Below the pieces are notes generated by a model. The model was not told the origin of the DNA, did not search any database, and saw nothing but the letters and a program-made list of their open reading frames with translations. A stretch of DNA of 64,000 nucleotides from Candidatus Binataceae bacterium (GTDB taxonomy: Bacteria > Desulfobacterota > Binatia > Binatales > Binataceae): contig JBOHWK010000169.1 of assembly GCA_050736715.1 (NCBI GenBank), forward strand, positions 73 through 64,072, read 5' to 3'. Of the stretch, positions 2,832-17,754 are shown piece after piece. Each line of letters opens with the position of its first letter. Position 1 is the first letter of the stretch. Made by a program: the position numbers and the translations under genes.

Positions 2832-3254
2832 ATGGCTGACGCATTCCAATTCCGGCTGATCACGCCGGCCGGAGTGGTCTTTTCCGGCGATGCCGATCGG
2901 GTGTCCGCCACGGGCGCGCTCGGCGATTTTGGGGTGCTGCCGGCGCACGCGAATTTCATCACCGCGCTCGCTCCTGGATTCCTTGAAGTGAAGCTGCCCG
3001 GCGGCGCGGCGCAATCGTGGGTCGTTTCCGGCGGCTTGGCGGAAGTCAAAGACGGCGCGATGACGGTGCTGGCGAACGGGACGGAATTGCCCGATAACGT
3101 CGATGGGGAAGCGGCCGCCAAGGACGAAAAAGAGGCCGGCGCGGCGCTCGCGCGGAAAAGCACCTACGATCCCGATTACCCGGCCGCTCTTGAAGCGTTG
3201 CAACTCGCCCGCGCCCGGATGCGGGCCGCGGCGCTCAAATCTGCCGCGCGCTGA
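2832..3254 (+). CDS. atpC: F0F1 ATP synthase subunit epsilon
   Basis: 140 aa immediately after atpD; N-terminal beta-sandwich motif FRLITPAGVVFSGDADRVSATGALGDFGVLPAHA. Confidence 0.9.
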   Translation: MADAFQFRLITPAGVVFSGDADRVSATGALGDFGVLPAHANFITALAPGFLEVKLPGGAAQSWVVSGGLAEVKDGAMTVLANGTELPDNVDGEAAAKDEKEAGAALARKSTYDPDYPAALEALQLARARMRAAALKSAAR

Positions 3255-3467
3255 TCAGTCCGCCATCCACCAGCGCCGGACGGCGACCAGGGACCAGACT
3301 CCCTCGACCAGCCCGAACGGCCACGCGCCTTGAAGAAATCCATAAGCGGACCCCAGCACGCATGCTCCCGCGAACGCCAGAATGAACCACGGGCTGCGGC
3401 CTTCCAGCGCATAGCACACCATCATCGCCGTCACCGCAAACAGACCGAAAAGCGTGAGTCCGCTCAT
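3255..3467 (-). CDS. small hydrophobic membrane protein (2 predicted TM helices), hypothetical
   Basis: ATG at 3467 (revcomp of cat 3465-3467) preceded by GGAGG; 70 aa MSGLTLFGLFAVTAMMVCYALEGRSPWFILAFAGACVLGSAYGFLQG...; the longer upstream-extended ORF in the track lacks an RBS. Confidence 0.4.
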   Translation of the reverse strand: MSGLTLFGLFAVTAMMVCYALEGRSPWFILAFAGACVLGSAYGFLQGAWPFGLVEGVWSLVAVRRWWMAD

Positions 3468-3542
3468 ACGCCTCCAAAGGTGGCAGATTGCCGGAAGCCG
3501 GGCCAGCGAGAAGATGCCGCCCCGCTCGATTTTGCAAATTGA

Positions 3543-3571
3543 TTGACAGGGCCGGTGGCGGGGCGATAAAA
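3543..3571 (+). promoter_or_regulatory. candidate sigma70-type promoter for the cytochrome cluster (TTGACA-N17-ATAAAA)
   Basis: TTGACA at 3543-3548, 17-nt spacer, A/T-rich -10-like hexamer 3566-3571, ~70 nt upstream of the first cytochrome gene. Confidence 0.3.
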
Positions 3572-3643
3572 AGCGGCTGCCAGTTGTTGGATCGGTCCGC
3601 AAGCGGAGGAGCGCGATAATTCGCGCGCGGGCCGAATCGCAGC

Positions 3644-5254
3644 GTGGCGTGGGAGGACGCATCGAAATTGAAGCGGTTGGGTGGTATCGCCCGAATCGTG
3701 GCCGCGATTGCCGCAATGGTGGCTGTCGCGGGATGCGGTTATGCGCCGGGGTTTACCCGGCTGTCAAAAATCGAGCAGCCGAAACCGAAGAAATCGACGT
3801 TCTTCCTCGCTTCCGCCCACTGCCAATTGTGCCATCCCGCGGAGTACGAGGAATGGCGCACCTCGATGCATGCGTATGCGCAGCACAGCCCCGTCTTTCT
3901 CTCGTTCAACGATTTCGTCCTCAAATCGAGCGGCGGGTCGCTGGGCGATTTTTGCGAACGCTGCCATACCCCCGTCGGGATGTCGTCGGGCGAAAGCCCG
4001 GTCGAGCCTAATTCCAAGCGATCCGAAGCCGCCCTCGACAGCGTCGGCTGCATCGCGTGCCACTCGGAGCACACCAATAACGCCGAAGCGTCCGGGGTAA
4101 TCCATGTTCCGGTAAACGGCGACAGCGAACCAATTATTTACGGACCCTACTACGGCTACGACGAGCCGGGCGCGCCCAAGAATCCGGCGATGCGCCTGAT
4201 CAAAACGCCCCACGAATCGCGCCATTCCGACTATTTCACCCACGCGCGATTGTGCGCGGCCTGCCATGACGTGTTCTCGCCCGACGGCTTCCGAATCGAG
4301 GAAGCGTACAGCGAATGGAAGAACGGCCCCTACGCGCGGCGCGGCATCCAATGCGAGAACTGCCACATGGGGCCGATTCCCGGCAAACCGTTCGCGCGGA
4401 CGGAATTCACCCGCGACTACATAGTCGATCCCAATCTCTTTCCCAACGCGCCGAAGCGGTACCGCTCCAACCATCGTTTCACCGGTCCCGACTATTCCCT
4501 GCTCGCGGCGTTCGGACAGAATGCGCTCTCGCTCGACAGCGCGTCGTTCAAGAAATTGGAGGCGCAACTCGAAACCCAGCGGGAGACGTTGTTGCGCAAT
4601 GCCGCCACGATGCGGGTGAAGCTGCCCGGCGGCGTGACGGCGGGAGCGGCGCTGCCGATTACGGTCGCGGTGACCAATTCGGGTGCGGGGCATAATCTTC
4701 CGACCGGATTCGCGGCGGAGCGGCAATTGTGGCTCGAGGTGATCGTCACCGACTCAACCGGAAGGCAAATCTTCATCTCCGGCAACACCGATGAAAACGG
4801 CGACCTGCTCGATCCCGACAGCGAGGAAGTCCGCGCGGGCAAGCTGCCGATCGATTTGGACCTATTCAACCTCGAGGCGCAATTCATCAATCTCGATTTC
4901 AAGGGCACCGATGCCGAGAACATCAGCACCGTCAACCGCTTCCTCGACCCGGTTCCGTTCGTGACCCCTCCCCAGACCCCATCCCTCATCAACGGAAATG
5001 TTCCGGCGGGCCGCATCTTCAAGCGCGGAATCCCGCCGCTGGAGACGCGGACGGCGGACTACCGGGTGGAGGTTCCATGGGACGCGGCGGGTCCGCTGAC
5101 CGTATCGGTTCGGCTGCGCTACCGGAATTTGCCGCCCCATCTGCTCGCCGAACTCGGCATCCCGAAATATCGAGCGAAGCTAAGAGTCGTGGACTTGGCC
5201 ACGTTCAAGAAACAGGTTGCGATCGATTCGGCCGCGGTCTCCAGCGCGCGTTGA
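3644..5254 (+). CDS. pentaheme c-type cytochrome, predicted lipoprotein
   Basis: GTG start; signal peptide ending in lipobox VAGC; five CXXCH (CQLCH, CERCH, CIACH, CAACH, CENCH) in the first ~240 aa followed by a ~300-aa non-heme domain. Confidence 0.8.
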   Translation: MAWEDASKLKRLGGIARIVAAIAAMVAVAGCGYAPGFTRLSKIEQPKPKKSTFFLASAHCQLCHPAEYEEWRTSMHAYAQHSPVFLSFNDFVLKSSGGSLGDFCERCHTPVGMSSGESPVEPNSKRSEAALDSVGCIACHSEHTNNAEASGVIHVPVNGDSEPIIYGPYYGYDEPGAPKNPAMRLIKTPHESRHSDYFTHARLCAACHDVFSPDGFRIEEAYSEWKNGPYARRGIQCENCHMGPIPGKPFARTEFTRDYIVDPNLFPNAPKRYRSNHRFTGPDYSLLAAFGQNALSLDSASFKKLEAQLETQRETLLRNAATMRVKLPGGVTAGAALPITVAVTNSGAGHNLPTGFAAERQLWLEVIVTDSTGRQIFISGNTDENGDLLDPDSEEVRAGKLPIDLDLFNLEAQFINLDFKGTDAENISTVNRFLDPVPFVTPPQTPSLINGNVPAGRIFKRGIPPLETRTADYRVEVPWDAAGPLTVSVRLRYRNLPPHLLAELGIPKYRAKLRVVDLATFKKQVAIDSAAVSSAR

Positions 5255-5260
5255 GCCGCG

Positions 5261-6706
5261 ATGCGAGTGCGACGGGTGCCAATTTCCGCAATCAGAAAGG
5301 CGAAAGCCGCCGCGATAATTTTCGCGATGATTATGCTCGCGCCGGCCGGCGCGGCGGCGTTTACGGTATTCGGCGCCGATTTCATCTCGCCGGGACAGGT
5401 CCCGGATTCAAATTGGACGCTGTTCGGAGAGACGCTCAATCCGCGCCTCGACGTGGACGGCGACATCCGGATTCAATTCAACAACTACCGGCTCGGAGCT
5501 CCGGCGCCGCCGCCATCCAGCGGCATCGCCTTCCTCTATTCGCCGCCACCGCCGGTCATTACGGGTCAGACGTTCGGGCAATTCGTGCCGGAAGCCGACT
5601 TTGAAGCGAATCTGCAATTGACCGCGACGCAGCGGATTAACGTGCTGTTCCGGCCGTTCGAGGGTGGCGATCGCGAGCCGACGATTTGCGAATTTGCCGC
5701 GCCGAAAAAAGGCTGCACGTTTCAGGAGGAAGCCGCCCCCGCCGCGCTGTATTACGAGGGCCAGCCGTTCAACTGGCTAAGTCCCACCGACCGGCTGCCG
5801 CTGGACTTCAATGTTGCGGTGGGGCGGATTCCGTTCGTGCTGCAGAATGGCCTGTTCTTCGAGAACATCTTCGACGGCTTCGCGATCTCCAAGAACAATA
5901 TCCAGTTGGGCGACCTGTCGAATTTGAACGTAATCTACTTTCTGACTCTCGGAGAGACGCAGGGCGGCGTGAATTTCCGCGACGAGCAGCAGCAGCGGAA
6001 GAAGCTGATGGGCGGGTCGGTCGATTTCGACTGGTTCGATTATTTCTTCGAGGCCGAGTACGCACGCAGCTACGGCAACAATCCGATTCCGGGCGACGGC
6101 GCCGATCTGAACCGGAGTTTCATGGCGGCTTCCGTGACCCGCAATTTCGGCGGAGAGGCCGGCGCCACGCTGCGCGCGCTGGGAAATACCGGGAATGCGA
6201 CTAGCGGCGCGGGAGGGCTGTTCGCGTTCGAGTTCAACAAATTGGTTGGCCCGGCGCAGGGCTACGTCAATGTCTTCGGCGCCACGCAAAACTGGCTTCC
6301 GCTATCGGTGGAAGGATCGGCGCTGACCCGCGAGGGAATCCTGTTCGACTTCGACCGGCTGGCGAATTTTCCCCAGCTCAATCCGCGCGGTTCCAACAGC
6401 ATCGGCGGCGCAATCGGAGCGATATTCTGGCCCAAAGCCCAAACCACCTACACGCCGGAAATCGGCTGGCTCATCGACAACAAACCCAATAACAGCAACG
6501 ACCAGATCGGCGCCGCCTTCGAGATTCAGTCGGACTTGGCCTCGCTCCTGATTCCCGGCGACGCGCCGGCGGAACTCCAGCGGCGCGGGCTATTGTATGG
6601 CACGCTCGCGCGGCTTACCTTTACTGGGATACAAAACATGAACCGCGGAGTGGCGGGCGAGCGGTTCGATTACGGGGAGCGCTTGGAGTTAATCTACCAG
6701 TTCTGA
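5261..6706 (+). CDS. outer-membrane beta-barrel protein (porin-like), no heme motif
   Basis: Starts 6 nt after the lipoprotein cytochrome; Sec signal peptide (AAIIFAMIMLAPAGAAAF); Gly/Asn/Tyr-rich alternating pattern; C-terminal ...LELIYQF with terminal Phe typical of OM beta-barrels. Confidence 0.55.
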   Translation: MRVRRVPISAIRKAKAAAIIFAMIMLAPAGAAAFTVFGADFISPGQVPDSNWTLFGETLNPRLDVDGDIRIQFNNYRLGAPAPPPSSGIAFLYSPPPPVITGQTFGQFVPEADFEANLQLTATQRINVLFRPFEGGDREPTICEFAAPKKGCTFQEEAAPAALYYEGQPFNWLSPTDRLPLDFNVAVGRIPFVLQNGLFFENIFDGFAISKNNIQLGDLSNLNVIYFLTLGETQGGVNFRDEQQQRKKLMGGSVDFDWFDYFFEAEYARSYGNNPIPGDGADLNRSFMAASVTRNFGGEAGATLRALGNTGNATSGAGGLFAFEFNKLVGPAQGYVNVFGATQNWLPLSVEGSALTREGILFDFDRLANFPQLNPRGSNSIGGAIGAIFWPKAQTTYTPEIGWLIDNKPNNSNDQIGAAFEIQSDLASLLIPGDAPAELQRRGLLYGTLARLTFTGIQNMNRGVAGERFDYGERLELIYQF

Positions 6707-6719
6707 GGGAGGAGCGAAG

Positions 6720-7082
6720 ATGATTAAGCAAAGTCTAATTTTGGCTGCCGCGGCCGTGCTCGCGATGCCGGCCGCGTCCGCGTTTGCCGCGGGAAACGCC
6801 GCCGCCGGCGCCGCAGTCGCCGCCAAGAAATGCGCGGGATGCCATGGCGCGACAGGCGCGGGCAACGGTCCGGAGTTGCAGATGCTGAATGTCACCGTCC
6901 CGCCGGTTCCCTGGACGGACAAGGCGAAGATGTCCAAGTTCAGCGACGCCTATCTCACCAAGATCGTCACCGATGGTGGCCGCGCGGTCGGAAAAGGGCC
7001 GCTGATGGCGCCGTTCAAGGGCAAGCTTACCGCCGCGCAGATAAGCGACGCGATCGCCTACATCAGGTCGCTCGCGAAATAG
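6720..7082 (+). CDS. monoheme class I cytochrome c (c55x/c6-like), periplasmic
   Basis: 120 aa; signal peptide; single CAGCH heme site; downstream Met-rich loop (GPLMAPFKG) typical of a Met sixth ligand. Confidence 0.8.
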   Translation: MIKQSLILAAAAVLAMPAASAFAAGNAAAGAAVAAKKCAGCHGATGAGNGPELQMLNVTVPPVPWTDKAKMSKFSDAYLTKIVTDGGRAVGKGPLMAPFKGKLTAAQISDAIAYIRSLAK

Positions 7083-7099
7083 AATCCGGCGGTGCGGGA

Positions 7100-7798
7100 G
7101 TGAAAGCTAATCCGCTCGACAGCGCATTCGCGTTTCTGAAGATCGGCCATCAACAGGGCGAGCAATGGGGCACAGCGCTCGATTGGGCGATTATCTTCAC
7201 GCTGGTCCTGAGCGCATCGATCATCGTCCTCGTAATGGTCAGCCGAGCCGCATACCGGGGACGGCAGGAACAGCCCCCGGCGATTTGGCTGAACGTGCTC
7301 GCATTGGGCATATTCCCCGTGCTGCTCCTATTTTTCGGAAATTTCGCTGTATTCAGCTACGCGGAGCAGGAGCAATTTTGCGCATCATGCCATCTCACGA
7401 TGCAGCCGTACATCAATGACATCGACAATCCAAGCAGCAAAAGCCTGGCCGCCTGGCACCATCAGAACCACTTTTCGCCGGGCGGCGAGGAGGCCTGCTA
7501 CACCTGCCACGCCGACTACGGAATTCACGGCACCTTCAGGGCCAAACTGTCGGGCCTGCACGACGCGTATGCGTATGCAACGCACACCTATCGTCTGCCG
7601 ATTAAGCTCAGGAGGCCATTCAGGAACAGCCTGTGCTTAAAGTGCCATAACAGCACCAGGCTGTTCATGGCGGTCGATTCGCACTTGGGCGAGGACAACA
7701 AGGTTTCGAGCGCAATTTTGGACAATTCGCTGCAGTGCACGGTCTGCCACGGCCCCGCGCACCGGCTCGAACAATTTAAGAAGGCGGCGAAAACTTAG
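7100..7798 (+). CDS. NapC/NirT/NrfH-family membrane-anchored tetraheme cytochrome c (quinol dehydrogenase)
   Basis: GTG at 7100 preceded by GGGAG; one N-terminal TM helix (WAIIFTLVLSASIIVLVMV) then four CXXCH (CASCH, CYTCH, CLKCH, CTVCH); ~230 aa, the family's architecture. Confidence 0.8.
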   Translation: MKANPLDSAFAFLKIGHQQGEQWGTALDWAIIFTLVLSASIIVLVMVSRAAYRGRQEQPPAIWLNVLALGIFPVLLLFFGNFAVFSYAEQEQFCASCHLTMQPYINDIDNPSSKSLAAWHHQNHFSPGGEEACYTCHADYGIHGTFRAKLSGLHDAYAYATHTYRLPIKLRRPFRNSLCLKCHNSTRLFMAVDSHLGEDNKVSSAILDNSLQCTVCHGPAHRLEQFKKAAKT

Positions 7799-7800
7799 CC

Positions 7801-8346
7801 ATGCCCAGTCTTCAAGTCCGAAGAGGTAATTGGCCGCCGCGATTGCTCACCGCGGCGCAGATAATGGCCGGGCTCGTCGCGCTGATCGTGCTATTCGCGA
7901 CTTTGACCCTGAATCCATTTCTGATTCTCGGTTTCACATTCCTTGAGGTTCTGCTTCCGATCGCCGTGGTGTGCTTCTTTGTCGTGGCAGTCGCTTCGCT
8001 CCATCCCACGATTACCGAATTTTTCGAACCGGGGGACGTAATCTTTGAGGAGGGGACGGAGGGAAGACACCTCTACTTGATTAAAAAAGGCCGCGTTGAA
8101 CTCCTTAAAAAGAACCCGGAAGGAGCCTTCGAAGTCGTCTCACAGCTGAGCGAAGGACAGCGTTTCGGCTACGCCGCGATCTTCCATCGCCTCCACCGCA
8201 TCTATACCGCTCGCGCGGCCGGCAAATGCGAAGTTGTGAAGATGACACCCGCCGGATTCTTTGCGTCGGTCGAACCCGCCGAAGCGGAACGCATCCTCCA
8301 GTTTGGCGCCGCGCTGACGCTCGAACAGGGAAAGCCGAATCAGTGA
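7801..8346 (+). CDS. membrane protein with a C-terminal cyclic-nucleotide-binding (CAP-family) domain
   Basis: Two predicted TM helices followed by GDVIFEEGTEGRHLYLIKKGRVEL...GYAAIF, matching the cNMP-binding beta-roll signature; 2 nt after the NapC-like gene. Confidence 0.65.
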   Translation: MPSLQVRRGNWPPRLLTAAQIMAGLVALIVLFATLTLNPFLILGFTFLEVLLPIAVVCFFVVAVASLHPTITEFFEPGDVIFEEGTEGRHLYLIKKGRVELLKKNPEGAFEVVSQLSEGQRFGYAAIFHRLHRIYTARAAGKCEVVKMTPAGFFASVEPAEAERILQFGAALTLEQGKPNQ

Positions 8347-8437
8347 CTGTTCCATGCCGGCGGATTCCTTTCGCTTGCCGATCCGCCAGCAAATTGAGTA
8401 GAGTTGGCGACGATTTGCCGATCGGGGGAAGAATGTC

Positions 8438-11071
8438 ATGAAGCGGGGGATTATAGTCGCGCTGCTTCTGTTGATCGCCGGGTTTCCCGGCAGCCTGCTC
8501 GCCGCCGCTCCCGCAAAAGCTCCCACATGTACGCCGCTGCCTGCGGCTTCGACGCCCGGCTTCGCCACGATTCTCCTGACCTACATGGACAACTTCTGCT
8601 ACCTGAGTTGGGAGCATGACGCTCAAATCCGGTCGGCCAAAGGCACCCATCCGTATGTAAAGGTCTATTACTCGCCATCAATGTGGACGTGGCTCGAAGC
8701 CGGCGACCGCGAGGCCACCGTTCCCGACGGCGCGATGCTGGTAAAGGAACAGTACCAGACCCTTACCGCGCCGCTTTCCGAATGGACGATCATGGTCAAG
8801 GACCACACCGGATCGTGGGACGGCTGGTATTGGGCGGATTTCGCTTCGCCGAAGAAAGGCCCGCCGAAGTCACCGCCGTCCGCCACGGACGCATCCGGCG
8901 CGGCAAGTACCGTTGCAGCCGCTGCGCAGGGCAAGTATGGATGCGGGGAGCCGACGCTTACTTTCGCCGGCTTCGGTTCCGGCAACGGCAACACCTGTAT
9001 CGGATGCCATGCGTCGGCGGCGGACGGCCAGGGAACCTTTTCCAGCACCGATTACGTAGGCGCGGCATTGACGCCGCCCGATCTCAACGCGCCGCCGATT
9101 CTCGACAATATCCACCAGATTGGCGCCCGCCTGGCGGATATGCGCGCGATTGCCGCGCTCGATGCCGCCGGCGCAACTCCGCTTGAGAACGCAGTATCGC
9201 CCGATGACATCCGTCCGCTCTCCGCCGGGAAGGCGGCGTGCATGCCGCCCGAATCGCTCGACCACGTGGTGGCAGGCGGACAGCCCACCGGCGGCCCGGA
9301 AGAATTCCTGACTTCGGATCAATGCGCGTCGTGCCACGATGCGACCGGGACAATCTCGGGCACGGGCCGGGCGGATATTCCGAGTATGTTGTGGCCCGAC
9401 GCGATCACGCCGCTCGCGAATCTCTCCGAATACGGCGAGTGGCGCTATTCGATGATGGGGCTGGCGGGGCGCGATCCGATCTTCTTTTCGCAGCTCAATT
9501 CGGAATCCACCATCCATGACAATCTGCAAGGATTGCCCGGCAACCCCAGCCCTCCGCTGTTCGTGCAGAACTTATGTCTTCATTGCCACGGCGTGATGGG
9601 ACAGCGGCAACTGCAGATCGATACCGGCGGCACCGGGCTCTTGTCTCGCGCGGAACTGAACGATCCGAATTCAAAATACGGCGCGCTCGGCCGCGACGGC
9701 ATCTCGTGCCTCGTTTGCCATCATATTTCTCCCGAAGGTCTGGGCGACCCTTCCACCTTCACCGGCGATTTCAACGTCGGTCCCGCGACCGAAGTTTACG
9801 CCCAGTACCCCGATCCGATAACGTTGCCGATGGATAACGCGCTGGGTATCACGCCTGAGGACGGCAGCCAGATCGGCGATCCCGCGATGTGTGGATCGTG
9901 CCACACGATCATCCTGCCGGTGTACGCCGCCAACGGGAATCAAGTCATGGAAGGCGGCGTGCCCAAAACATTTTACGAGCAGGCGACATTTCCAGAATGG
10001 CTGAACAGCAACTTCGCAACGGTTCCCTGCCAAACCTGCCATATGCCGGACACGTATCATGGCAGTCCGCTCTCGTACAAAATCGCGAACATCGAGGACA
10101 ATACCTTCCCGGCGTTCCCGTTCGTCGCCCCCGCCGAGGACATCACGATGCAAGTGCGGCAGCCGTTCAACCGCCACACTCTCCTCGGCATCAACGTCTT
10201 CGCGCTGGAGATGTTCGGGCAGTTCCGCACCGCGCTGGGGCTTTATGCGACGGACCCACAATTGCCCGGCAATGCCGCAAAGGCGATTTCCAGCCAAAAA
10301 ACCGCAGTCGTGGAAGCGGTGAATGAGGCCGTTACCCAGACCGCGACGGTCGATATTCTTTCCGCTACCAGAGTTGGCGGCACGATTCAGGCCGATGTGA
10401 CAGTGACGAACCTGGCCGGGCATAGTTTCCCGTCTGGGGTGGGCTTCCGCCGCGCATTCGTGGATTTTCAGGTGCTCGGTCCGGGCGGGAAAGTACTGTG
10501 GGCATCGGGCGACACGAATAAGAAAGGGGTGATCGTCGGCATCAAGCGCAAGCCGCTCATCACGGAATACTTCACTCCCAAGCAGCAGGCCTTCCAGCCG
10601 CACTTTTGGATCGGCAATCCGATTACCAGCGAAAACCAGGCGCAGATTTACGAGGAATTGGTCGCCGATCCGCAGGGACAATTGACCACCAGCTTTCTCA
10701 GCTTGGACAACAAGGTAAAGGACAACCGGCTCCAGCCGCAGGGATGGTCCGTGGACGGGCCGTTCGCCGAGGAAACCGGCCCGGCCGGCGGCGCGTCTGA
10801 CGACCCCGATTACACGACCACCGACAGCCCCGGCTCCAACACGATTCGTTACGAGGTGCCGATTAATTCCAAGACCACGAACGCGATCGCGGTGAGCGCG
10901 ACCTTGTACTATCAGGCAATCCCGCCCTATTACCTGTATATGCGCTCGCACGACGCGAGCGGCCCCGACACCTCCCGTTTGAACGATTTCACCAAGCGGC
11001 TGCGCGTCAAAGGCACCCCCGTGGACAACTGGCGGCTGCAAATCGCGACGCAAACGCAGAATATTCAGTAG
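8438..11071 (+). CDS. large secreted multiheme c-type cytochrome (6 CXXCH) with an N-terminal non-heme domain
   Basis: 877 aa; Sec signal; CIGCH, CASCH, CLHCH, CLVCH, CGSCH, CQTCH; N-terminal ~150 aa is aromatic-rich (FCYLSWEHD...DGWYWADF) without heme motifs; GGGGAAG RBS. Confidence 0.8.
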   Translation: MKRGIIVALLLLIAGFPGSLLAAAPAKAPTCTPLPAASTPGFATILLTYMDNFCYLSWEHDAQIRSAKGTHPYVKVYYSPSMWTWLEAGDREATVPDGAMLVKEQYQTLTAPLSEWTIMVKDHTGSWDGWYWADFASPKKGPPKSPPSATDASGAASTVAAAAQGKYGCGEPTLTFAGFGSGNGNTCIGCHASAADGQGTFSSTDYVGAALTPPDLNAPPILDNIHQIGARLADMRAIAALDAAGATPLENAVSPDDIRPLSAGKAACMPPESLDHVVAGGQPTGGPEEFLTSDQCASCHDATGTISGTGRADIPSMLWPDAITPLANLSEYGEWRYSMMGLAGRDPIFFSQLNSESTIHDNLQGLPGNPSPPLFVQNLCLHCHGVMGQRQLQIDTGGTGLLSRAELNDPNSKYGALGRDGISCLVCHHISPEGLGDPSTFTGDFNVGPATEVYAQYPDPITLPMDNALGITPEDGSQIGDPAMCGSCHTIILPVYAANGNQVMEGGVPKTFYEQATFPEWLNSNFATVPCQTCHMPDTYHGSPLSYKIANIEDNTFPAFPFVAPAEDITMQVRQPFNRHTLLGINVFALEMFGQFRTALGLYATDPQLPGNAAKAISSQKTAVVEAVNEAVTQTATVDILSATRVGGTIQADVTVTNLAGHSFPSGVGFRRAFVDFQVLGPGGKVLWASGDTNKKGVIVGIKRKPLITEYFTPKQQAFQPHFWIGNPITSENQAQIYEELVADPQGQLTTSFLSLDNKVKDNRLQPQGWSVDGPFAEETGPAGGASDDPDYTTTDSPGSNTIRYEVPINSKTTNAIAVSATLYYQAIPPYYLYMRSHDASGPDTSRLNDFTKRLRVKGTPVDNWRLQIATQTQNIQ

Positions 11072-11123
11072 CGCCGCCGCGCCGCACTGCGGCGTTGCAT
11101 TACTAATCAGTGAGGATACGCCG

Positions 11124-12140
11124 ATGCGCGCAATTTGGATTACCAAGGCCGGCGGGCCCGAAGTGCTGGAGGTTCGCGAGACGCCCGATCCCGTTCCCAA
11201 GCCCGGCGAAGTACGGGTCCGCGTCGCCGCGTGCGGATTGAATTTCGCCGAATTGATGGCGCGGCAGGGGCTGTACCCCGACGCGCCCAAGATTCCGTGC
11301 GTGGTCGGCTATGAAGCCGCAGGCACGATCGATGCCGTCGGCGATGGCGCCGACCCCGGCCTAATCGGCAAGCGCGTGGTGGTGCTGTGCCGGTTCGGCG
11401 GGCACGCCGATCAGGTCTGCGTCACGGCGGCGAACGCCTTCCCGATCCCGGTCGAGATGAGCTTCGAGGAAGCCGCCGCGATTCCGGTGAATTACTTGAC
11501 CGCGTACCAGATGCTGTTCCGGGTTGCCTCGATTCATCCGGGCGAATCGGTCCTGATTCACATGGCGGCGGGCGGCGTGGGAATCGCGGCGCTGCAATTA
11601 TGCCGCACCGTCGAGGGAATCGTCACCTTCGGCACCGCGTCGTCGTCGAAGCACGAGGTAATCCGCGCCAACGGCTGCGGGTACCCGATCGATTACCACC
11701 AGACCGATTATTTCGCGGAAGTCATGCGGCTGACCGGCGGCAAGGGCGTGGATGTGGTCCTCGATCCGCTCGGCGGCAACGATTGGCGCAAGGGTTACAA
11801 ATTGCTCAAGTCGGCGGGAAAATTGATCGCGTTCGGATTCTCCAACATGGCGTCCGGGAACACGCGCAACTACTGGCGGATGCTCCGCCAAATCGTGCGG
11901 GTTCCGATCTTCACCCCGATGGGCCTGATGGACAAGAATCGCAGCGTCGCCGGCGTCAACATGGGCCACCTGTGGGACGATCCCTACCTGCCGTTCGCGA
12001 TGAACCGGCTCTTAATCATGTATCGCGAGGGACAGATCAAGCCGCATATCGATTCGACGTTTCCGTTTGCGCAGGCGGCGCAGGCGCACTTGCGTCTTCA
12101 GGAAGGAAAGAATATCGGGAAAGTAGTGATGACTCCGTAG
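11124..12140 (+). CDS. zinc-binding alcohol dehydrogenase-family oxidoreductase (NADPH:quinone reductase-like, MDR)
   Basis: 338 aa; GEVRVRVAACGLNFAELMARQG N-terminal catalytic-domain motif; Rossmann AAGGVG. Confidence 0.85.
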   Translation: MRAIWITKAGGPEVLEVRETPDPVPKPGEVRVRVAACGLNFAELMARQGLYPDAPKIPCVVGYEAAGTIDAVGDGADPGLIGKRVVVLCRFGGHADQVCVTAANAFPIPVEMSFEEAAAIPVNYLTAYQMLFRVASIHPGESVLIHMAAGGVGIAALQLCRTVEGIVTFGTASSSKHEVIRANGCGYPIDYHQTDYFAEVMRLTGGKGVDVVLDPLGGNDWRKGYKLLKSAGKLIAFGFSNMASGNTRNYWRMLRQIVRVPIFTPMGLMDKNRSVAGVNMGHLWDDPYLPFAMNRLLIMYREGQIKPHIDSTFPFAQAAQAHLRLQEGKNIGKVVMTP

Positions 12141-12324
12141 CGAGTGAGTCCGATATGCGCAGCATAATGACGCCACCTAACCCCGGCGCCGCCGGCAGAG
12201 TCTGGACCGCCAAAGGTATCATGATCTCGAAAGTTCTCAGTTTTTTGGTTCCCCTTCCCGTGCGGGAAGGGACCAGGGGGTAGGTTGATTTGGAGGGTTC
12301 CCCGCCGGGCAAGGAGTTGTACGA

Positions 12325-12912
12325 ATGAAACCGATTTTGTTTGAGGAGACGCTATCGCTGGCGGATTACGAGCGCGTGCGCGCACGCCTGCGCCCGCTAT
12401 TCATCCATGAAAAGGACCGCCGCCGCCTCGGCGTGGGCGCCCATCTGACGCTGCTCTTCGAGAACGCGCAAACGGTCTGGTATCAGGTCCATGAAATGAT
12501 CCGCAGCGAGCGGATGACCGCGCGCGAGGCGATTCAGCAGGAGTTGGACACATACAACGAGTTGATTCCGGGCCCCGGCGAATTGACCGCGTCGCTGCTG
12601 ATCGAATACGCCGATACCGCCGAGCGCGACGCGGCGTTGCGGCGCTTGGTCGGTTTGGAAGACCATCTCTGGCTCGTATTGGGAGATCGGCGAATCGCGG
12701 CGAAATTCGACGATCGCCAGATGTCGCCGGAACTGATTAGCGCGGTGCAATTCCTGCGGTTCCCGCTGGACGGCATCGATGCGGACTGGTTTGAGGATCT
12801 CGCAAGCCGCGGCGCGGCCGCAATCGAGGCCGATCATCCGAGCCTGGCGGCGCGGGCGGTTATTGGCGGATTGACCGCCGCTTCCCTGATCGAAGACTTG
12901 AGCCAGCCCTGA
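12325..12912 (+). CDS. conserved hypothetical protein, DUF3501-like
   Basis: 195 aa; LTLLFENAQTVWYQVHEM segment resembles the DUF3501 family as recalled from memory; no catalytic motif recognised. Confidence 0.45.
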   Translation: MKPILFEETLSLADYERVRARLRPLFIHEKDRRRLGVGAHLTLLFENAQTVWYQVHEMIRSERMTAREAIQQELDTYNELIPGPGELTASLLIEYADTAERDAALRRLVGLEDHLWLVLGDRRIAAKFDDRQMSPELISAVQFLRFPLDGIDADWFEDLASRGAAAIEADHPSLAARAVIGGLTAASLIEDLSQP

Positions 12913-13023: not shown

Positions 13024-15513
13024 TCATTCGGTAGAACCGGAAGGCGCCGGCGTGGGGGTGAATCCCGGCATCGCGACGCCGACTGGGAAGTTCAGGTGCG
13101 TCCGGCCTCCGCGGATGACGATGCTCGGTGGGAGGTCGCAGGTGGGCGCCGGATTGCCACTGCAATCGAAATCATCCCAGACCAGGAGGCTGTTGGTCAG
13201 GTGATCCACCACATAGAGATCGTCGTTGTCGTAGTTGTTCCAAGCGATCCCGACCGGCCGTTTGAGTTTGGTCTTCTTGCCGGCGATCGTTCCGATCAGA
13301 GGCGACGCATTCGTTAACGCGGTCGTGGGGTCGCAGAAGTTATTCGGGTTAGTCGGGCCTCCCACGCAGCACGAATACGGAGTTTGGTACCCGGTGCATA
13401 CGCTGTTCGTGATATCGAAAATCTTAATCCCGACTTGGCCGCAAGTACCCGTCCCCGTGCCGGTGCAACAAGCGTATGGGGTGCCATTGCAGAAACCCTG
13501 ACCGGGTCCGCTGCAGCAACTATTCGGCGCCTCGAAGCCGGTGCACTCGCTATTCGGGCCGTCGCAGGTACCCGTCCCTGCGCCGCTGCAACACGCATAC
13601 GGCGCGCCGAGTCCGGTACAGTCGCCGTTTATGTTGTCGCAGGTGCCCGTTCCTGCGCCGGTACAACAGGCAAACGGCGCTGGATCGGTAGGGGGAGTGC
13701 TGTCGGGACCGGCAGTGCATTTGGTATTGATATCGAGGCATTTGGAGGTTAGCGCGGGATTGCCGACGTCGGTAACGAACAAGTTGCTGCTGTCCGCGGT
13801 GACGGCGAGGAATTGCGGGCCGACCAGCGGACCGGCTAATAGCGGCGGAAGGTTCGCGCCCACGGCGCCTACCGGAATTACGTCTCCGGCGGCGTCCGGC
13901 GCGAATACCAGGACTGCCGCAATGCCCTTGGTTTCGCCGGCGGCGTCCGTGACAAACAGATTGTTATTGCCGTTGAATGCCAGCCCGGACGGGCCGAGCA
14001 GGACGGTGTTGCATCCCGCAATCGTGGCCAGCTTTGTGATCGTTGGCGGCTGCAGGCCCGGAACCGGGCAACTGGTGCAGGCGGCGTTTTGCTCGAAGAT
14101 TTCGCCCGCGTTAATCGGAGAGTTATTGCCCGACGCGTCGGATTCGTTCGTGTAATATTCGTTAATTGACCCGACGCTCGCCGCCGCGCCCAAGCCCGCA
14201 CTTATGCTGTTGCAGGTGCCGGTGCCGGGGCCTGTGCAGCAGGTATAAGGCGCGGCGCAACTGCCAACCCCCAATCCGGTGCAACACGCAACCGGCTCCT
14301 CATTGCCGGTGCATCCGGCGTTGCCTACCCCGGTGCACTCGGCGTTCGTGGGGGGAGTCGCCGGATCGCAGGTTATGGGGCAGAGCAGGCCGTTAATCCC
14401 GGTTGCGTTAGCTCCGCTGCAAGTGGTGTCGGTTCGCTCGCAATCTCCCGTTCCCGCCCCGGTACAGCACGGGAAAGCGCTTGGCTCCATTGTTATCTGG
14501 TTAATGCCGGTTCCCGGCCCGGTGCACTCCACACTTGGAAGAGGGGTATGGACAGTCTCGGTGGGACTCACGAAAAACCCATAATTCGACACGGCGAAAT
14601 ACTCGCCGGTGTTGCCGTTTCCTTGCGCGATGCCATCGGCAACGAGGGGATCGTCGGTATTGTACGGATTGGCGAAGGCGATGTCCTCCGGTGCGAACAG
14701 CCCCGCTTGGTCGCCGTCAGCAAGTCCCGCGGGGCAGGAACCGGCCTCCGGGCCGGTGCAGCATGGGTAAGGTATTCCGCAAGTGCCGGCGTTTTTGCCG
14801 ATGCAGCAGGAATTCGGCAGCCCTTTGGCGGTGCATCCGGAGTTGCCGCAGGTGCCCATCCCATCGCCGGTGCAACATGGATACGGCTCCGCGAATGCCG
14901 TGCAGGCGGCGTTAGGACTGGAAGTCGGTCCCGACAAGCACTCCGAGTTGCTGGAAGAATTCGGCATCGGAGAAGAAATCGTTGCGGCTGGGGGCGTATT
15001 GCCGTTGGACGAACCGGGCGAGAACAATCCGATTGAAAAGAAAAGCTGCGTGGCCAAGCCCGCGTTGACTTCGGTGTTCGTTTCGACCATGGGACTGTTG
15101 GACAGCGAACCGACCCCGATCCCGCCGACGACGGCGACGGACGGGGCGATCATGCCGGTTTTGTTGCCCTTGATTTCGGTGGCGGGCTTGGCATTGCCGT
15201 GGGAGCAGGGAGCGAAAGTCTCGACCGAGCCGGCGCCGCCGCCGTAGTTGGATACCGCCAGGCCCGCGAGTGGAGCGGTGGGAAATTCCGACGTATCCAT
15301 CCCGTCGGGGCATTTGCCGCTTTTCGCGTCCGCCTTCGCCTTGGACCCCGCGAAGCTGACGCCCGCCGTCGCCGCAAGCATCGCGGCGATCGCGAACGCC
15401 GCCGCCGGAACCGCAAGCCGGCGAACTGCGGCGGCAAGACGCCCCGCCGCCGTGCGGGCGGGCGAAACTCCATGCGCCTCTTGAGCCATCGTTTGCATTT
15501 TTCCCTGCGTCAT
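13024..15513 (-). CDS. large secreted Cys/Gly/Thr-rich repeat protein with NHL-like beta-propeller repeats
   Basis: 829 aa; ATG at 15513 with GGGGGT RBS; signal peptide (RRLAVPAAAFAIAAMLAATAG); ~11 degenerate repeats of PY-x-CC(T/S)G-x-G(T)G(T)C; NLFVTD / DLYVVDHLTNSLLVWD NHL-type motifs. Confidence 0.7.
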   Translation of the reverse strand: MTQGKMQTMAQEAHGVSPARTAAGRLAAAVRRLAVPAAAFAIAAMLAATAGVSFAGSKAKADAKSGKCPDGMDTSEFPTAPLAGLAVSNYGGGAGSVETFAPCSHGNAKPATEIKGNKTGMIAPSVAVVGGIGVGSLSNSPMVETNTEVNAGLATQLFFSIGLFSPGSSNGNTPPAATISSPMPNSSSNSECLSGPTSSPNAACTAFAEPYPCCTGDGMGTCGNSGCTAKGLPNSCCIGKNAGTCGIPYPCCTGPEAGSCPAGLADGDQAGLFAPEDIAFANPYNTDDPLVADGIAQGNGNTGEYFAVSNYGFFVSPTETVHTPLPSVECTGPGTGINQITMEPSAFPCCTGAGTGDCERTDTTCSGANATGINGLLCPITCDPATPPTNAECTGVGNAGCTGNEEPVACCTGLGVGSCAAPYTCCTGPGTGTCNSISAGLGAAASVGSINEYYTNESDASGNNSPINAGEIFEQNAACTSCPVPGLQPPTITKLATIAGCNTVLLGPSGLAFNGNNNLFVTDAAGETKGIAAVLVFAPDAAGDVIPVGAVGANLPPLLAGPLVGPQFLAVTADSSNLFVTDVGNPALTSKCLDINTKCTAGPDSTPPTDPAPFACCTGAGTGTCDNINGDCTGLGAPYACCSGAGTGTCDGPNSECTGFEAPNSCCSGPGQGFCNGTPYACCTGTGTGTCGQVGIKIFDITNSVCTGYQTPYSCCVGGPTNPNNFCDPTTALTNASPLIGTIAGKKTKLKRPVGIAWNNYDNDDLYVVDHLTNSLLVWDDFDCSGNPAPTCDLPPSIVIRGGRTHLNFPVGVAMPGFTPTPAPSGSTE

Positions 15514-15816
15514 TTTGTAACCCCCGCCGAATTCGGATCGACTCCCCGTTGCAGGACCAATCAGCGTTGCGCGTGTTAACTACCTTTTTCCGGCGGCAAT
15601 TTCAAGAGCACCGCAATTATTTTTGTGGCTGCGCCCGGCGGCGAGGTCGCCGGCCGTCGCTCCGGGAAGTCCGTCGTACTTGACAAGGCGGGGATCGGAA
15701 TGGTACCTAAGCCGCGTCCGCAGAGCGTCGCCTGCACTGGCGGGCGATGGGGTCTCCCGGCCGGGGCCGGAAGATTTGCGATGCCGCGAGAGCTCCAATT
15801 TGGCTTGGGGGTAGGT

Positions 15817-17754
15817 ATGCAGCACGGGAACATGGGACGCATGACGAGGGGGCGGATATTGCTCGTGGCCGCAATCGCGGCGGCGGCGACCTTGTGGTCC
15901 TCCGCCGCGATGGCGACGATCACTCAGGGCGATTTTTCCGTTTACGGATTCTTCGAGACCCGCGAATCGGGCCGCTGGGGCGAGGCCAGCGTCAAGAACA
16001 ACGGCACCCAGACCACCTACACTCATCCCATTCCGGGTGCGACCGAAGTTCTAAAGGGCGGGCAAGCAGGCAGCTACACCGGGGGCAGCTTCGATTTCAA
16101 TCATTGGGACCTGGTGGAAGCTCGCCAACTCGGCGACATCCGCCCCGACTATCATTTCGTAAAAAACTACAAATTCCTCGGTCGGTTCGACACGATTCTC
16201 CTCAAGGATGCCGACTTCTTTGCGTTGTGGCGGCCGTGGTACGACGCGGAAGGAGACCTCAAGAGCCAAGGAGTCGCCAACACCAACCGCGATTGGAACA
16301 ATTACCAGCACTACCAGATCACGCAGCAATACATCCGGGACGATCTGCACGAATATTACGCACAGTTGAATTTCACCGATAATTTCTCCGCGCGCATCGG
16401 CAAGCAGCAGGTAATTTGGTCGGAGGCGGACGCCTTATCGGGCACCGAGATCACCAACTCGGTGGACACCACCTATCACTGGCTGAACTTCGAATCGCCC
16501 GAAGACCTGCGCAAGAACGTGCGGATGATCAAGTTCAACTACATTCTCCCCGATATGTACAAGACCGCCAACAATGAAATCGACTTTTTCATTATTCCCG
16601 GCGATTTCCAGGGCGATGGCATCAATGTCAATCTCGGCGACGCCCGCAATCCGTGGACGCCGCCGGCGGCCGGCAGCCATTCGGCGTTGCTGTCGTCCTC
16701 GTACAACCAGAACGGCGAACCGTATTACGCCGCGACACCGCAACGGAGCGGCGCCGCGCCGATGACTCTGGTTTCGGCCGCGGGCGGCGGCGGCACATTT
16801 TTCGACCTGATGGAGGAGCCGTACGGCCACCCGCCCAGCAACTCGCTGGAAAACAGCGAATTCGGAATGCGCATCTCGAGCCTGCTGCCGATTGGCAACG
16901 GCCTCCAGATGAGTTTCATCTATTTGTACGAGGCGCGCGACTCCAAAATCAGCCTGTGCTCGAGTTGCGGTCCGCTGCAAGCGCAGCGGGCTTCGGCGGA
17001 ATTCATGGGGGCCGGTGCAAGGGCCTCGAACTGGGAATATCCGCCGGGAGGAATCGCGGCGCCCGCCGGGACCTTCGTCAATTTCGGCAACTACCGGTAT
17101 GGCTTCCCGCGCGCCGGCGTGCCGAAGGCCGGGACGGTGCTGGTCATGTACAACACCGATTACCGCCGCAATAACTTCTTCGATTTGACCGGCACCTATT
17201 ACGACAAGGACCTCACCGACATCGTGTACCGCTACGACTTTTTCTACGCCCCGAAGGTGGGTATCGCCACCGTCGAACCCTACGGAAAACTGGCCGGCCT
17301 GCCGGGTCCGGGAGCGGCGGGACAATGGACCCAGGAGTCCCGCTGGATCGTGGCCGCTGACCGGCCGACCTATATCCCGTGGATTTCCAAGCAGCACACC
17401 TTCCTGACCTTCCAGAACACCCTGACTTGGTATCCCGCCCTGCCGGAGCATGCGGTGGCCAATCTGCTGCAAACCGCGGGGAAGATTCGCGAGACCAGCG
17501 ATCTGTTTTTGGTGGCCGCGACCGATTGGCTGATGAACGGCCAGTTGACGACGCTGAATGCGGCCGCGTGGGACGTCGACGACCGCGTCGGCGAAATTAC
17601 CACCAGCAATTCGTACCGCTATTCGCGCAACGTTCTGTTCGGCGTGAACAGCGTCTGGTATCTGGGACAGAGCGGTAGGTACACCGATCCTTACACCTTC
17701 AGCCGCAGCCAGGTGATGAACGAATTGGAATTCACCCTGACCTACGAGATTTAG
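15817..17754 (+). CDS. large secreted/outer-membrane protein, hypothetical (possibly DUF1302-like)
   Basis: ATG at 15817 after GGGGGTAGG; signal peptide RILLVAAIAAAATLWSSAAMA; 646 aa, Tyr/Asn/Gly-rich beta-strand-like periodicity; DUF1302 assignment is from memory of family size only. Confidence 0.5.
   Translation: MQHGNMGRMTRGRILLVAAIAAAATLWSSAAMATITQGDFSVYGFFETRESGRWGEASVKNNGTQTTYTHPIPGATEVLKGGQAGSYTGGSFDFNHWDLVEARQLGDIRPDYHFVKNYKFLGRFDTILLKDADFFALWRPWYDAEGDLKSQGVANTNRDWNNYQHYQITQQYIRDDLHEYYAQLNFTDNFSARIGKQQVIWSEADALSGTEITNSVDTTYHWLNFESPEDLRKNVRMIKFNYILPDMYKTANNEIDFFIIPGDFQGDGINVNLGDARNPWTPPAAGSHSALLSSSYNQNGEPYYAATPQRSGAAPMTLVSAAGGGGTFFDLMEEPYGHPPSNSLENSEFGMRISSLLPIGNGLQMSFIYLYEARDSKISLCSSCGPLQAQRASAEFMGAGARASNWEYPPGGIAAPAGTFVNFGNYRYGFPRAGVPKAGTVLVMYNTDYRRNNFFDLTGTYYDKDLTDIVYRYDFFYAPKVGIATVEPYGKLAGLPGPGAAGQWTQESRWIVAADRPTYIPWISKQHTFLTFQNTLTWYPALPEHAVANLLQTAGKIRETSDLFLVAATDWLMNGQLTTLNAAAWDVDDRVGEITTSNSYRYSRNVLFGVNSVWYLGQSGRYTDPYTFSRSQVMNELEFTLTYEI

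Follow-up and report, generated by a model that had tools for sequence, protein, structure and literature searches.

The window analysed here, a stretch of 64,000 nucleotides from a Candidatus Binataceae bacterium, a soil organism of an uncultured group (assembly GCA_050736715.1, contig JBOHWK010000169.1), contains a cluster of six genes, g1 to g6, which encode cytochromes and their membrane partners. The cluster combines two elements with different histories of conservation. A pentahaem lipoprotein cytochrome (g1) and an outer-membrane beta-barrel (g2) form a pair that stays together at every locus examined and is usually extended by g3, g4 and g5, and the hexahaem protein g6 is distributed independently of this module. 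We tentatively interpret g1-g5 as a porin-fed periplasmic multihaem oxidoreductase linked to quinone, accompanied by a separate P460-type protein, g6, and we hold this interpretation with slightly less than even confidence. The genes and the domains of g6 are as follows.

3668..5254, plus strand: g1, lipoprotein cytochrome c with five haems and the c552/ExtKL (PHC) fold; a haem cap is followed by a C-terminal immunoglobulin (Ig)-like domain carrying GHNLPTG
5261..6706, plus strand: g2, outer-membrane beta-barrel of ~16-18 strands, from a family without a Pfam model
6720..7082, plus strand: g3, class I monohaem cytochrome c of the periplasm; it has a signal peptide, the haem motif CAGCH and, within MxxF, a conserved Met
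7100..7798, plus strand: g4, tetrahaem membrane cytochrome of the NapC/NirT/NrfH superfamily, with four CXXCH and two N-terminal transmembrane (TM) helices
7801..8346, plus strand: g5, membrane protein with two TM helices and a cytoplasmic CRP/cyclic nucleotide (cNMP)-type sensor domain (PF00027, 65.7 bits)
8438..11071, plus strand: g6, hexahaem periplasmic cytochrome of 877 aa, consisting of a P460-fold domain, a linker, a PHC core with an Ig-like domain and a C-terminal extension
8525..9037, plus strand: P460/c'-beta-fold domain of g6 (residues ~30-200), with the haem motif C187-x-x-C190-H191 and the invariant K103
9290..10537, plus strand: PHC pentahaem core and Ig-like domain (GHSFPSG) of g6 (residues ~285-700), paralogous to g1

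All six open reading frames (ORFs) are called on the plus strand, with intergenic gaps of 6, 13, 17, 2 and 91 nt from g1 to g6. The six proteins contain 5, 0, 1, 4, 0 and 6 CXXCH motifs, and neither CX3-4CH nor CXXCK motifs are found in them. An initial annotation, made from the letters of the window, had described six closely packed genes on one strand with pentahaem, monohaem, tetrahaem and hexahaem cytochromes, and the ORFs and the haem counts (5, 1, 4 and 6, without CXnCH variants) bear this out. Its list of parts also agrees with the lipobox and PF13435 in g1, PF00034 in g3, PF03264 in g4 and PF00027 in g5, with one correction: g4 has two N-terminal TM helices, not one. As it had noted, no molybdopterin, Fe-S or copper catalytic subunit is encoded within the cluster. 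Judging from the spacing and the conserved gene order, the six genes may be co-transcribed.

The comparison across genomes separates g6 from the other genes. We fetched 79 genome loci of g6 and searched them with all window proteins. A single one of them, L062 from a Binatia metagenome-assembled genome (MAG), also holds g1-g5; there, g6 lies upstream of g1, and the proteins share 59% (g1), 49% (g2) and 56% (g6) identity with those of the window. Among the other 78 loci, g6 stands alone in 77, and L012 has just a relative of the quinone oxidoreductase (qor-like) gene that follows g6 in the window. No neighbour of g6 is conserved across the 79 loci; the best neighbour cluster occurs in 15 of them and is heterogeneous. 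From the side of the module, nine Binatia-type loci (window included) are available. The order g1-g2-g3-g4(-g5) is present in L062, L080, L084, L085, L086 and L088, with g5 in full or reduced to its TM part, g1-g2-g3 is present in L082/L083, and g1-g2 in L087. The gene g3 is kept after g2 in eight of the nine. Seven of these nine loci have no g6 nearby. Selection therefore acts on g1-g2 as the unit, in most cases together with g3-g4-g5, with g6 as an accessory next to it in two lineages. The single six-gene unit of the initial annotation is therefore not upheld by the synteny check. In L082, a g6 homologue (L011) lies on the same contig ~700 kb away from g1-g2-g3.

Three more distant loci, L089, L090 and L091, complete the set of 12, and at all 12 a g1-type cytochrome is encoded directly upstream of a g2-type barrel. 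In L089, from Planctomycetales bacterium 10988, the gene after a PHC cytochrome encodes a 534-aa protein homologous to g2 (hhalign 99.4%, E 5.5e-22; the two are 27% identical over 292 columns). The four consecutive genes at 4643-11833 of this locus (CP043547.1) encode a protein similar to OS_HP2/DUF1573, a UshA-like 'PCGC' protein that ends in a tetrahaem domain (NF041198 at 190.7 bits, below its cut-off of 275), a TM-anchored monohaem plus PHC hexahaem protein and the g2-type barrel; three of these four proteins are cysteine versions of families that NCBI names '(seleno)protein'. The distant barrels P0326 and P0308 (L090 and L091) were chosen without regard to their context, and each is encoded directly after a g1 homologue, which matches the g1 profile with hhalign E values of 2.4e-52 and 1.8e-86, respectively. 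In the most divergent Binatia-type loci (L082, 13946-18636; L087, 1374-6114), g4 and g5 are replaced by a cNMP-domain plus DsrO-like 4Fe-4S protein and by a TrxR/YpdA-like flavoprotein with a fused multihaem c3 domain.

Two of the Binatia-type loci have peculiarities of their own. At 6864-7981 of L088, the g1 position is called as two short ORFs (305 and 63 aa) upstream of intact g2-g5, which suggests that this g1 is frameshifted or mis-assembled. At 12270-16618 of L085, ~1.2 kb downstream of g1-g5, a 4Fe-4S and NrfD-like fusion protein and a 936-aa molybdopterin oxidoreductase are encoded, which were seen in none of the other loci.

For g1, the most plausible start is TTG at 3668, behind the Shine-Dalgarno sequence GGGAGGA, with GTG at 3644 as the alternative. 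From TTG 3668, the signal peptide ends in the lipobox V-A-G-C, which is kept in all g1 orthologues with a complete called N-terminus. The protein has 11 cysteines (orthologues have 11-13), ten in the five CXXCH motifs and one in the lipobox. It is matched at 40.5 bits by PF13435, the broad Pfam model 'Cytochrome_C554'. The profile of g1 orthologues matches the structure of T. tepidum c552 (5ZE8) with an E value of 6.7e-7 in three collinear segments, which cover haems 1-3, haems 4-5 and the Ig-like strand with H-x-x-P-T-G. With five collinear CXXCH motifs in a helical cap, followed by an Ig-like beta-sandwich, g1 belongs to the fold family named PHC, which takes in ExtKL and Gsu2801 of Geobacter (PMC11976967). 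Among the relatives with a solved structure, cytochrome c552 comes closest to g1 as well as to the g6 core; its five CXXCH motifs stand in the same order, and its Ig-like domain has H-x-x-P-T-G. It is a soluble protein of ~385-435 residues without assigned function (PMC11976967). In comparison, g1 is a lipoprotein with a C-terminal part ~100 residues longer and an obligate barrel partner, and g6 adds the P460-fold domain and a C-terminal extension. We found ~60 close orthologues of g1, a number comparable to that of the close g2 homologues. The sister group consists of 635-750-aa cytochromes with 36-40% identity, whose named sources are almost all planctomycete, cultured strains included.

Four histidines outside the CXXCH motifs (H68, H182, H269 and H342, numbered from TTG 3668) are kept across the Binatia g1 orthologues. 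H68, H269 and H342 are also kept in the distant homologues of L090 and L091, and the position of H182 aligns less clearly. Because there are four such histidines for five haems, one haem would have no conserved His distal ligand, which makes it a candidate active site. By analogy, this haem may point to an enzyme rather than a pure wire. Local similarity of g1 to NrfA is found around haem 5 (W-x-N-G/S-x-H...C-x-x-C-H-M, 26 residues), and the similarity to MccA is confined to the first haem. The planctomycete PHC homologue has no lipobox; a TM helix anchors it at the N-terminus and a monohaem domain is fused to it, an architecture that argues for a periplasmic haem domain.

The barrel g2 matched nothing in Pfam, NCBIfam or the PDB sequences when searched as a single sequence. 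Its AlphaFold2 (AF2) model (pLDDT 84.8, pTM 0.78) has ~16-18 long strands and its barrel class is OprD/AlgE/MOMP. In the comparison with known barrels, the score is 15.2 for OprP, 13-14 for FhaC, TamA and BamA, and 12.2, at rank 50, for MtrB. The barrel of MtrB has 26 strands, and g2 is not a large barrel of the MtrB/PioB/MtoB type that encloses a polyhaem cytochrome. From the model, g2 appears too small to sheath a multihaem cytochrome as MtrB or PioB does, and by its size it should hold neither the ~300-residue haem cap nor a class I cytochrome. Since g2 is not MtrB-like, a sheath conduit of the Mtr/Pcc type looks unlikely. Conservation in g2 is highest in a non-barrel insertion around residues 110-230; in the model, the insertion spans residues ~120-180 and contains many invariant positions. 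There are 56 close homologues among 5.8 billion proteins, and an exhaustive profile search collected 445 clusters (50% identity) at E<=1e-3, 354 of them at E<=1e-10. No CXXCH motif is present in g2 or in any of 148 relatives, so these are no Cyc2-type fusions of porin and cytochrome, and that candidate was rejected. The C-terminal residue is F, W or Y in 137 of the 148. Many distant relatives carry N-terminal extensions of 200-800 aa, and in a Pfam scan of ten distant relatives with such long extensions, no domain was found in any of the ten.

A 361-aa fragment (P0121) that is 100% identical to g2 has been deposited as 'Bryobacteraceae bacterium', and g6 of the window is deposited as 'Candidatus Binataceae bacterium'. 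The two labels probably reflect a binning conflict between assemblies of one population.

The next three genes encode the predicted route to the quinone pool. The monohaem protein g3 is matched by PF00034 (47.4 bits) and PF13442 (46 bits). For g4, the listed ORF (6830-7798) overlaps g3; we set the start by the length of the orthologues and their alignment, and GTG at 7100 gives a protein of 232 aa, close to the 218-238 aa of the orthologues. PF03264 matches g4 at 32.3 bits (cut-off 24.1), and the protein has the four CXXCH motifs and the N-terminal anchor of NapC/NirT/NrfH tetrahaem cytochromes, with two TM helices against the usual one. The equivalog models are all far under their cut-offs (NrfH, TIGR03153, 35.5 against 134.2 bits; NapC/NirT, 20.4 against 310.6; likewise TorC and NapC), so g4 belongs to the superfamily as a divergent member, and none of the named proteins is its orthologue. 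It is presumed to be a quinol/quinone oxidoreductase. Class I His/Met cytochromes and NapC/NirT-type proteins serve both reductive chains (CymA, NrfH) and oxidative chains (cM552 of nitrifiers).

The sensor domain of g5 departs from the cNMP-binding pattern. The phosphate-binding cassette of cNMP domains has the form G-E ... R-[ST]-A. In g5 it reads FGY...YTARA, with the canonical Glu and Arg missing, and the orthologues have KFTARA, SLTVTA or QWTVKA, all without R[ST]A. The two TM helices are kept in all Binatia-type loci that have g4, and in two loci (L080, 12509-12874; L086, 10408-10653) the sensor domain is lost and the TM part alone is left. The TM part of g5 probably partners g4 in the membrane.

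In g6, a second haem protein fold is joined to a PHC core. The AF2 model of g6 (pLDDT 74, pTM 0.77) matches two kinds of solved structures with high probability in Foldseek, namely c552 (5ZE8, E 1.2e-9) and then McP460 and cytochromes c'-beta (6HIU, 9HRK and 7ZQZ; probability 1.00, 22-24% identity). PF16694 matches residues 1-262 alone at 34.5 bits (cut-off 27) and the whole protein at 25.7 bits; in a domain scan it matched 11 of 14 family members. As a single sequence, the N-terminus had no match in the PDB, and profile and fold searches alone succeeded. Like cytochrome P460 (CytL) and c'-beta, g6 has this fold at its N-terminus, with one CXXCH close to the domain's C-terminal end and an aligned lysine; unlike in the characterised P460 proteins, the domain is fused to five more haems and no distal carboxylate is clearly conserved. 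When the domain profile is aligned with the PDB sequences, PDGAxLVK of g6 falls on PDGAILVK of McP460, and C187/C190/H191 correspond to Cys140/Cys143/His144. The counterpart of K103 is Lys78, the haem cross-link residue of McP460 (residue roles from PMC12352625). A lysine at this position separates P460 from c'-beta, and g6 has it on a marginal alignment (E ~0.05). K103 and all six CXXCH motifs are invariant in 61 of 61 aligned homologues and in five homologues with 37-41% identity from other phyla. Lys-cross-linked P460 haems oxidise NH2OH to NO/N2O (PMC11928373). In the PHC part, 'SMH' of g1 becomes 'SMM' in g6, and the conserved M340 suggests, from the alignment, one His/Met haem. The 877-aa protein, taken as the large terminal cytochrome in the initial annotation, is thus recast as a carrier of a P460-fold domain with a candidate catalytic haem.

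More than 1,800 homologues of g6 were found at E<=1e-5, and the named entries are all 'hypothetical' or generic. The 79 genome loci all come from MAGs, which belong to Binatia, Acidobacteriaceae, Bryobacteraceae and a small number of other lineages, and one genome often has several copies; L002, L014 and L072 are paralogues in one MAG, and L064 and L071 lie on one chromosome. A lipobox is present in many homologues (...LSACGGG, ...FCACGN), but the signal peptide of the window copy is of the ordinary kind. No NCBIfam model matches g6. Octahaem hydroxylamine oxidoreductase (HAO) and other octahaem enzymes were rejected as relatives, because g6 has no HAO match in Pfam, NCBIfam or the PDB and has six CXXCH motifs against eight. 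A full-text literature search found no multihaem P460 in Acidobacteria. The 2025 review of the superfamily treats the characterised members as stand-alone proteins, and the words 'fusion', 'fused' and 'multidomain' are absent from it (PMC11928373).

The cluster has no full-length match to a characterised system, as the initial annotation had supposed; the NCBIfam equivalogs for NrfH, NapC, TorC, DmsE/MtrA, OmcA/MtrC and ExtKL are all far under their cut-offs. By analogy, the closest characterised counterpart of the module is ExtI-ExtKL of Geobacter. In the ExtHIJKL(MNOPQS) cluster of Geobacter sulfurreducens, a pentahaem cytochrome of the same fold family stands beside the porin-like ExtI and a quinol-oxidising module, as it does here (PMC5877670; PMC11976967). 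ExtKL has been identified as MccSep, a periplasmic polysulfide reductase in which haem 2 is ligated by Cys239, Sec325 is catalytic and haems 1, 3, 4 and 5 are bis-His ligated (bioRxiv 10.1101/2025.11.18.688581). There are differences. ExtI is encoded upstream of extKL, whereas the barrel g2 is downstream of g1, and the quinol module is of the Rieske/cytochrome b kind in Geobacter and of the NapC/NrfH kind here. Compared with ExtKL, g1 is a lipoprotein without a Sec/Cys catalytic residue and without a Cys haem ligand, and NF040886 gives 39.9 bits against 250. An MccSep-type polysulfide reductase was therefore rejected for g1, which has no Cys beyond the ten of the haem motifs and the lipobox one, and no Sec.

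Other respiratory systems share single traits with the cluster. An NrfH-like tetrahaem quinol dehydrogenase together with a pentahaem periplasmic cytochrome recalls NrfHA, but the overall fold of g1 is that of c552 and not of NrfA. Nrf nitrite reductase was rejected, as CXXCK is absent and the NrfA and NrfH models are far under their cut-offs. MtrCAB, PioAB, MtoAB and OmaB-OmbB-OmcB resemble the cluster in the adjacency of cytochrome and barrel, in a lipoprotein multihaem cytochrome and in a NapC/NirT-family (CymA-like) quinol dehydrogenase. Unlike MtrCAB, PioAB, MtoAB and Pcc, the cluster has no deca- or octahaem periplasmic insert, and the haem numbers and domain folds differ. The MtrA/DmsE model (TIGR03508) gives 24 bits with g1 (cut-off 192.2) and 16.6 with g4, and the OmcA/MtrC model (TIGR03507) gives 11.7 (cut-off 209.3) and 13.5. 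Membership in the Mtr/Pcc conduits was rejected on the barrel class and on the decahaem models, which are far under cut-off. For the Mtr/Pcc-type logic proposed in the initial annotation, this means that the cytochrome, the outer-membrane barrel and the quinol dehydrogenase are present and conserved, whereas the barrel is not MtrB-like. An MtrA-like wire is lacking as well: the sole periplasmic partner is a monohaem class I cytochrome and not a decahaem one.

For the oxidoreductase reading of g1-g5, we infer the localisation, the complex formation, the channel role, the catalysis and the substrates as follows. The barrel g2 would be a substrate channel that lets a small solute in to g1. At the inner face of the outer membrane, on the periplasmic side, g1 would act as the terminal oxidoreductase, with the haem lacking a conserved His distal ligand as its putative active site. 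It would be wired to the quinone pool through the soluble monohaem g3 and the NapC/NrfH-type g4, and g5 would modulate or stabilise g4. We favour a solute channel and a periplasmic g1 because the barrel is of a substrate-channel class, the planctomycete PHC protein is TM-anchored, and ExtI with ExtKL/MccSep offers an analogue. Inorganic sulfur species as the substrate of g1 are a weakly favoured guess. The pointers are weak: UshA/SoxB-like 'PCGC' tetrahaem and OS_HP2-like proteins adjoin the planctomycete pair, the pairs of L082 and L087 have a DsrO-like protein and a TrxR/YpdA-like flavocytochrome as neighbours, MccSep is a polysulfide reductase, and the source of c552 is a purple sulfur bacterium. 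Apart from the module, g6 would most likely be a periplasmic enzyme for hydroxylamine or NO-type substrates with a five-haem PHC wire of its own, and in the window and one other genome it may use the module's g3/g4 route to the quinone pool or to oxidases. A bolder version seems to us somewhat unlikely: the g6 family would be an unrecognised class of Lys-cross-linked P460 proteins wired to a pentahaem chain, turning over nitrogen at the NH2OH/NO level in non-nitrifying soil and peat bacteria and passing electrons through g3/g4, beside a physical g1-g2 complex.

Several observations weigh against the porin-fed oxidoreductase with a separate P460-type g6. True porin-cytochrome conduits are likewise marked by an unvarying adjacency of cytochrome and barrel. 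Behind the lipidated Cys, g1 has an N-terminal tether (C-G-x-x-P-G-x-T-R-L) of unusual conservation, which could mean that this tether threads through or docks in the barrel and that g1 is not a free periplasmic enzyme. As g1 has neither the Cys ligand nor the Sec/Cys of MccSep, the sulfur analogy is indirect. For g6, the tie to the module comes from two loci, which differ in gene order. The AF2 confidence is low around several of its haem sites, and the sequence alignment with McP460 is marginal by itself. The position of Asp102 of McP460 is T117 in g6, so the distal carboxylate is not clearly conserved; E115, two residues before, is common and variable, with D, G or L in some members.

The conserved tether and the adjacency at 12 of 12 loci, as in MtrAB, PioAB and MtoAB, would fit a new trans-outer-membrane conduit for extracellular electron transfer (EET) or uptake, which we consider rather improbable. 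Here g1 would be at the surface and electrons would pass through g2, with the tether, the Ig-like stem, a hairpin or g3 inserted in the barrel; g4 and g3 would feed electrons from quinol, and g6 would be an extra periplasmic or terminal cytochrome. The lipobox of all complete g1 orthologues and the strongly conserved segment behind it agree with this. PHC proteins of the c552 type have been reported as structurally related to archaeal extracellular cytochrome nanowires (PMC11976967), and divergent EET clusters of porins and multihaem cytochromes have been proposed in peat Acidobacteriota and Verrucomicrobiota, in a preprint that mentions neither Binatia nor pentahaem or c552-type proteins (bioRxiv 10.64898/2026.05.27.727921). 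Such a conduit would have to work without an MtrA-like periplasmic polyhaem wire and with barrels that carry a haem motif in none of 148 relatives, and the planctomycete homologue is TM-anchored and no lipoprotein. The hosts also speak against it: they are soil and peat Binatia MAGs and mainly planctomycete genomes, and to our knowledge these are not established metal reducers. The tether and the strict one-to-one pairing could also mean that g2 is an assembly, export or anchoring barrel that puts g1 on the cell surface or holds it at the membrane, comparable to Slam, to two-partner-secretion barrels or to LptD-LptE plug pairs. The conserved non-barrel insertion of g2 would suit this role, and the long N-terminal extensions of distant relatives could be periplasmic handling domains. 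We regard it as very unlikely, since Pfam finds neither POTRA nor TPR nor DUF560 in g2 or ten relatives, and a surface cytochrome would be left without an electron path.

The remaining alternatives concern g6. Its P460-fold domain, with the conserved cross-link lysine and CXXCH, revives a hydroxylamine-type reading, which the initial annotation had listed as a refutation of its own proposal. All six genes could form a hydroxylamine/NO-oxidising module, an analogue of HAO-c554-cM552 made from unrelated parts, in which g6 oxidises the substrate and electrons run along its pentahaem wire to g1 and/or g3 and on to g4 and quinone, or from g3 to a terminal oxidase. NH2OH oxidation to NO/N2O is the chemistry of Lys-cross-linked P460 (PMC11928373). 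The partners fit the logic of nitrifiers, with a P460-type haem, a multihaem relay, a NapC/NirT-type tetrahaem protein, the quinone pool and a class I monohaem cytochrome c. In Nitrosomonas, the chain is HAO/c554/cM552/c552. Unlike that chain, the cluster has no octahaem HAO match and no Tyr cross-link context, and the fold of g1 is c552-PHC and not that of the tetrahaem c554. The adjacency of g6 and module in two diverged genomes with different gene orders (window and L062) and a Met in g6 for the 'SMH' His of g1, which could mean a His/Met haem suited to an oxidative chain, are in its favour; His/Met-ligated c-type haems are generally of higher potential. Still, 77 of 79 g6 loci have no module and seven of the nine Binatia-type module loci have no g6, therefore the module has its own function. 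A dedicated porin for a small neutral molecule would be left unexplained, the proton-accepting carboxylate is not clearly conserved, and the first 29 kb of the window, the annotated part, show neither an ammonia nor a methane monooxygenase. We judge a six-gene module of this kind improbable. The opposite extreme, that g6 is a mere neighbour placed there by chance or in single lineages and sharing no electron chain with g1-g5, is unlikely as well but has to be taken seriously. The g6 family is normally solitary with several paralogues per genome and no conserved neighbour, the 91-nt gap before g6 is the largest in the cluster, and the homologue in L082 is far from the module. Against chance, the adjacency recurs in L062 in another order at 49-59% protein identity to the window, g6 and g1-g5 are on the same strand, and no terminator-like site separates g5 from g6.

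The surroundings of the cluster contain the following features.

1395-2822: atpD, upstream of the cluster
2832-3254: atpC, upstream of the cluster
3258-3467, minus strand: small divergent gene for a 69-aa protein with two TM helices, with a good Shine-Dalgarno sequence and no Pfam match
3543..3571, plus strand: weak sigma-70-like element, TTGACA followed by GATAAA at 16 nt or ATAAAA at 17 nt
11124..12140, plus strand: PIG3-type NAD(P)H:quinone oxidoreductase, 52 nt after g6 (TIGR02824, 245.8 bits, below the cut-off of 296.8)
12325-12912, plus strand: DUF3501 protein, after the PIG3-type oxidoreductase

The G+C content of the window is 59-68%. Because the minus-strand gene and a divergent intergenic region of 200 nt (3468-3667), between this gene and g1, part the cluster from atpDC, the cluster is a unit of its own and not a continuation of the atp operon. 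The TTGACA-N17 promoter-like element named in the initial annotation is present at 3543 as far as TTGACA goes, but its -10 partner is poor and the promoter scan left it uncalled, so it counts as a putative element. The numbers of promoter- and terminator-like sites across the region equal the shuffle expectation. Downstream, the hairpin 3' of g6 is not significant (z -1.66) and no clear terminator lies between g6 and the qor-like gene. The PIG3-type oxidoreductase is doubtful as a part of the unit; such a gene follows a g6 homologue in just one of the other g6 loci, L012. A scan of 3000-12500 with Rfam gave no match at E<=1. Between 11 and 29 kb, the flanks encode the quinone oxidoreductase, the DUF3501 protein, a GDP-mannose dehydratase, a glycosyltransferase, a TPR protein, a D-Ala-D-Ala carboxypeptidase, a sigma-70 factor and a flavin monooxygenase, and no nitrogen, sulfur or metal respiratory genes are seen there. 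Two long ORFs past the cluster, 13024-15513 on the minus strand (829 aa) and 15625-17754 on the plus strand (709 aa), have no Pfam match at E<=0.001.

In literature searches, we found no published description of the g1-g2 pair. What is new here is a cytochrome-barrel pair that is together at every locus examined, with a barrel family without a Pfam model, and, in soil bacteria, a large family of proteins in which P460 and pentahaem parts are fused. The pair spans Binatia, Planctomycetota and other metagenomic lineages, and settling whether it is a substrate gate or a compact conduit would lengthen the short list of couplings between multihaem cytochromes and the outer membrane. The g6 family comes mostly from soil and peat Acidobacteriota and Binatia and comprises >1,800 sequence clusters. 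If g6 has a true P460 cofactor, it would be a candidate, open to test, for turning over hydroxylamine/NO and so forming N2O in organisms that are not regarded as nitrifiers; it would also provide a natural example of a P460 haem equipped with an electron wire of its own.

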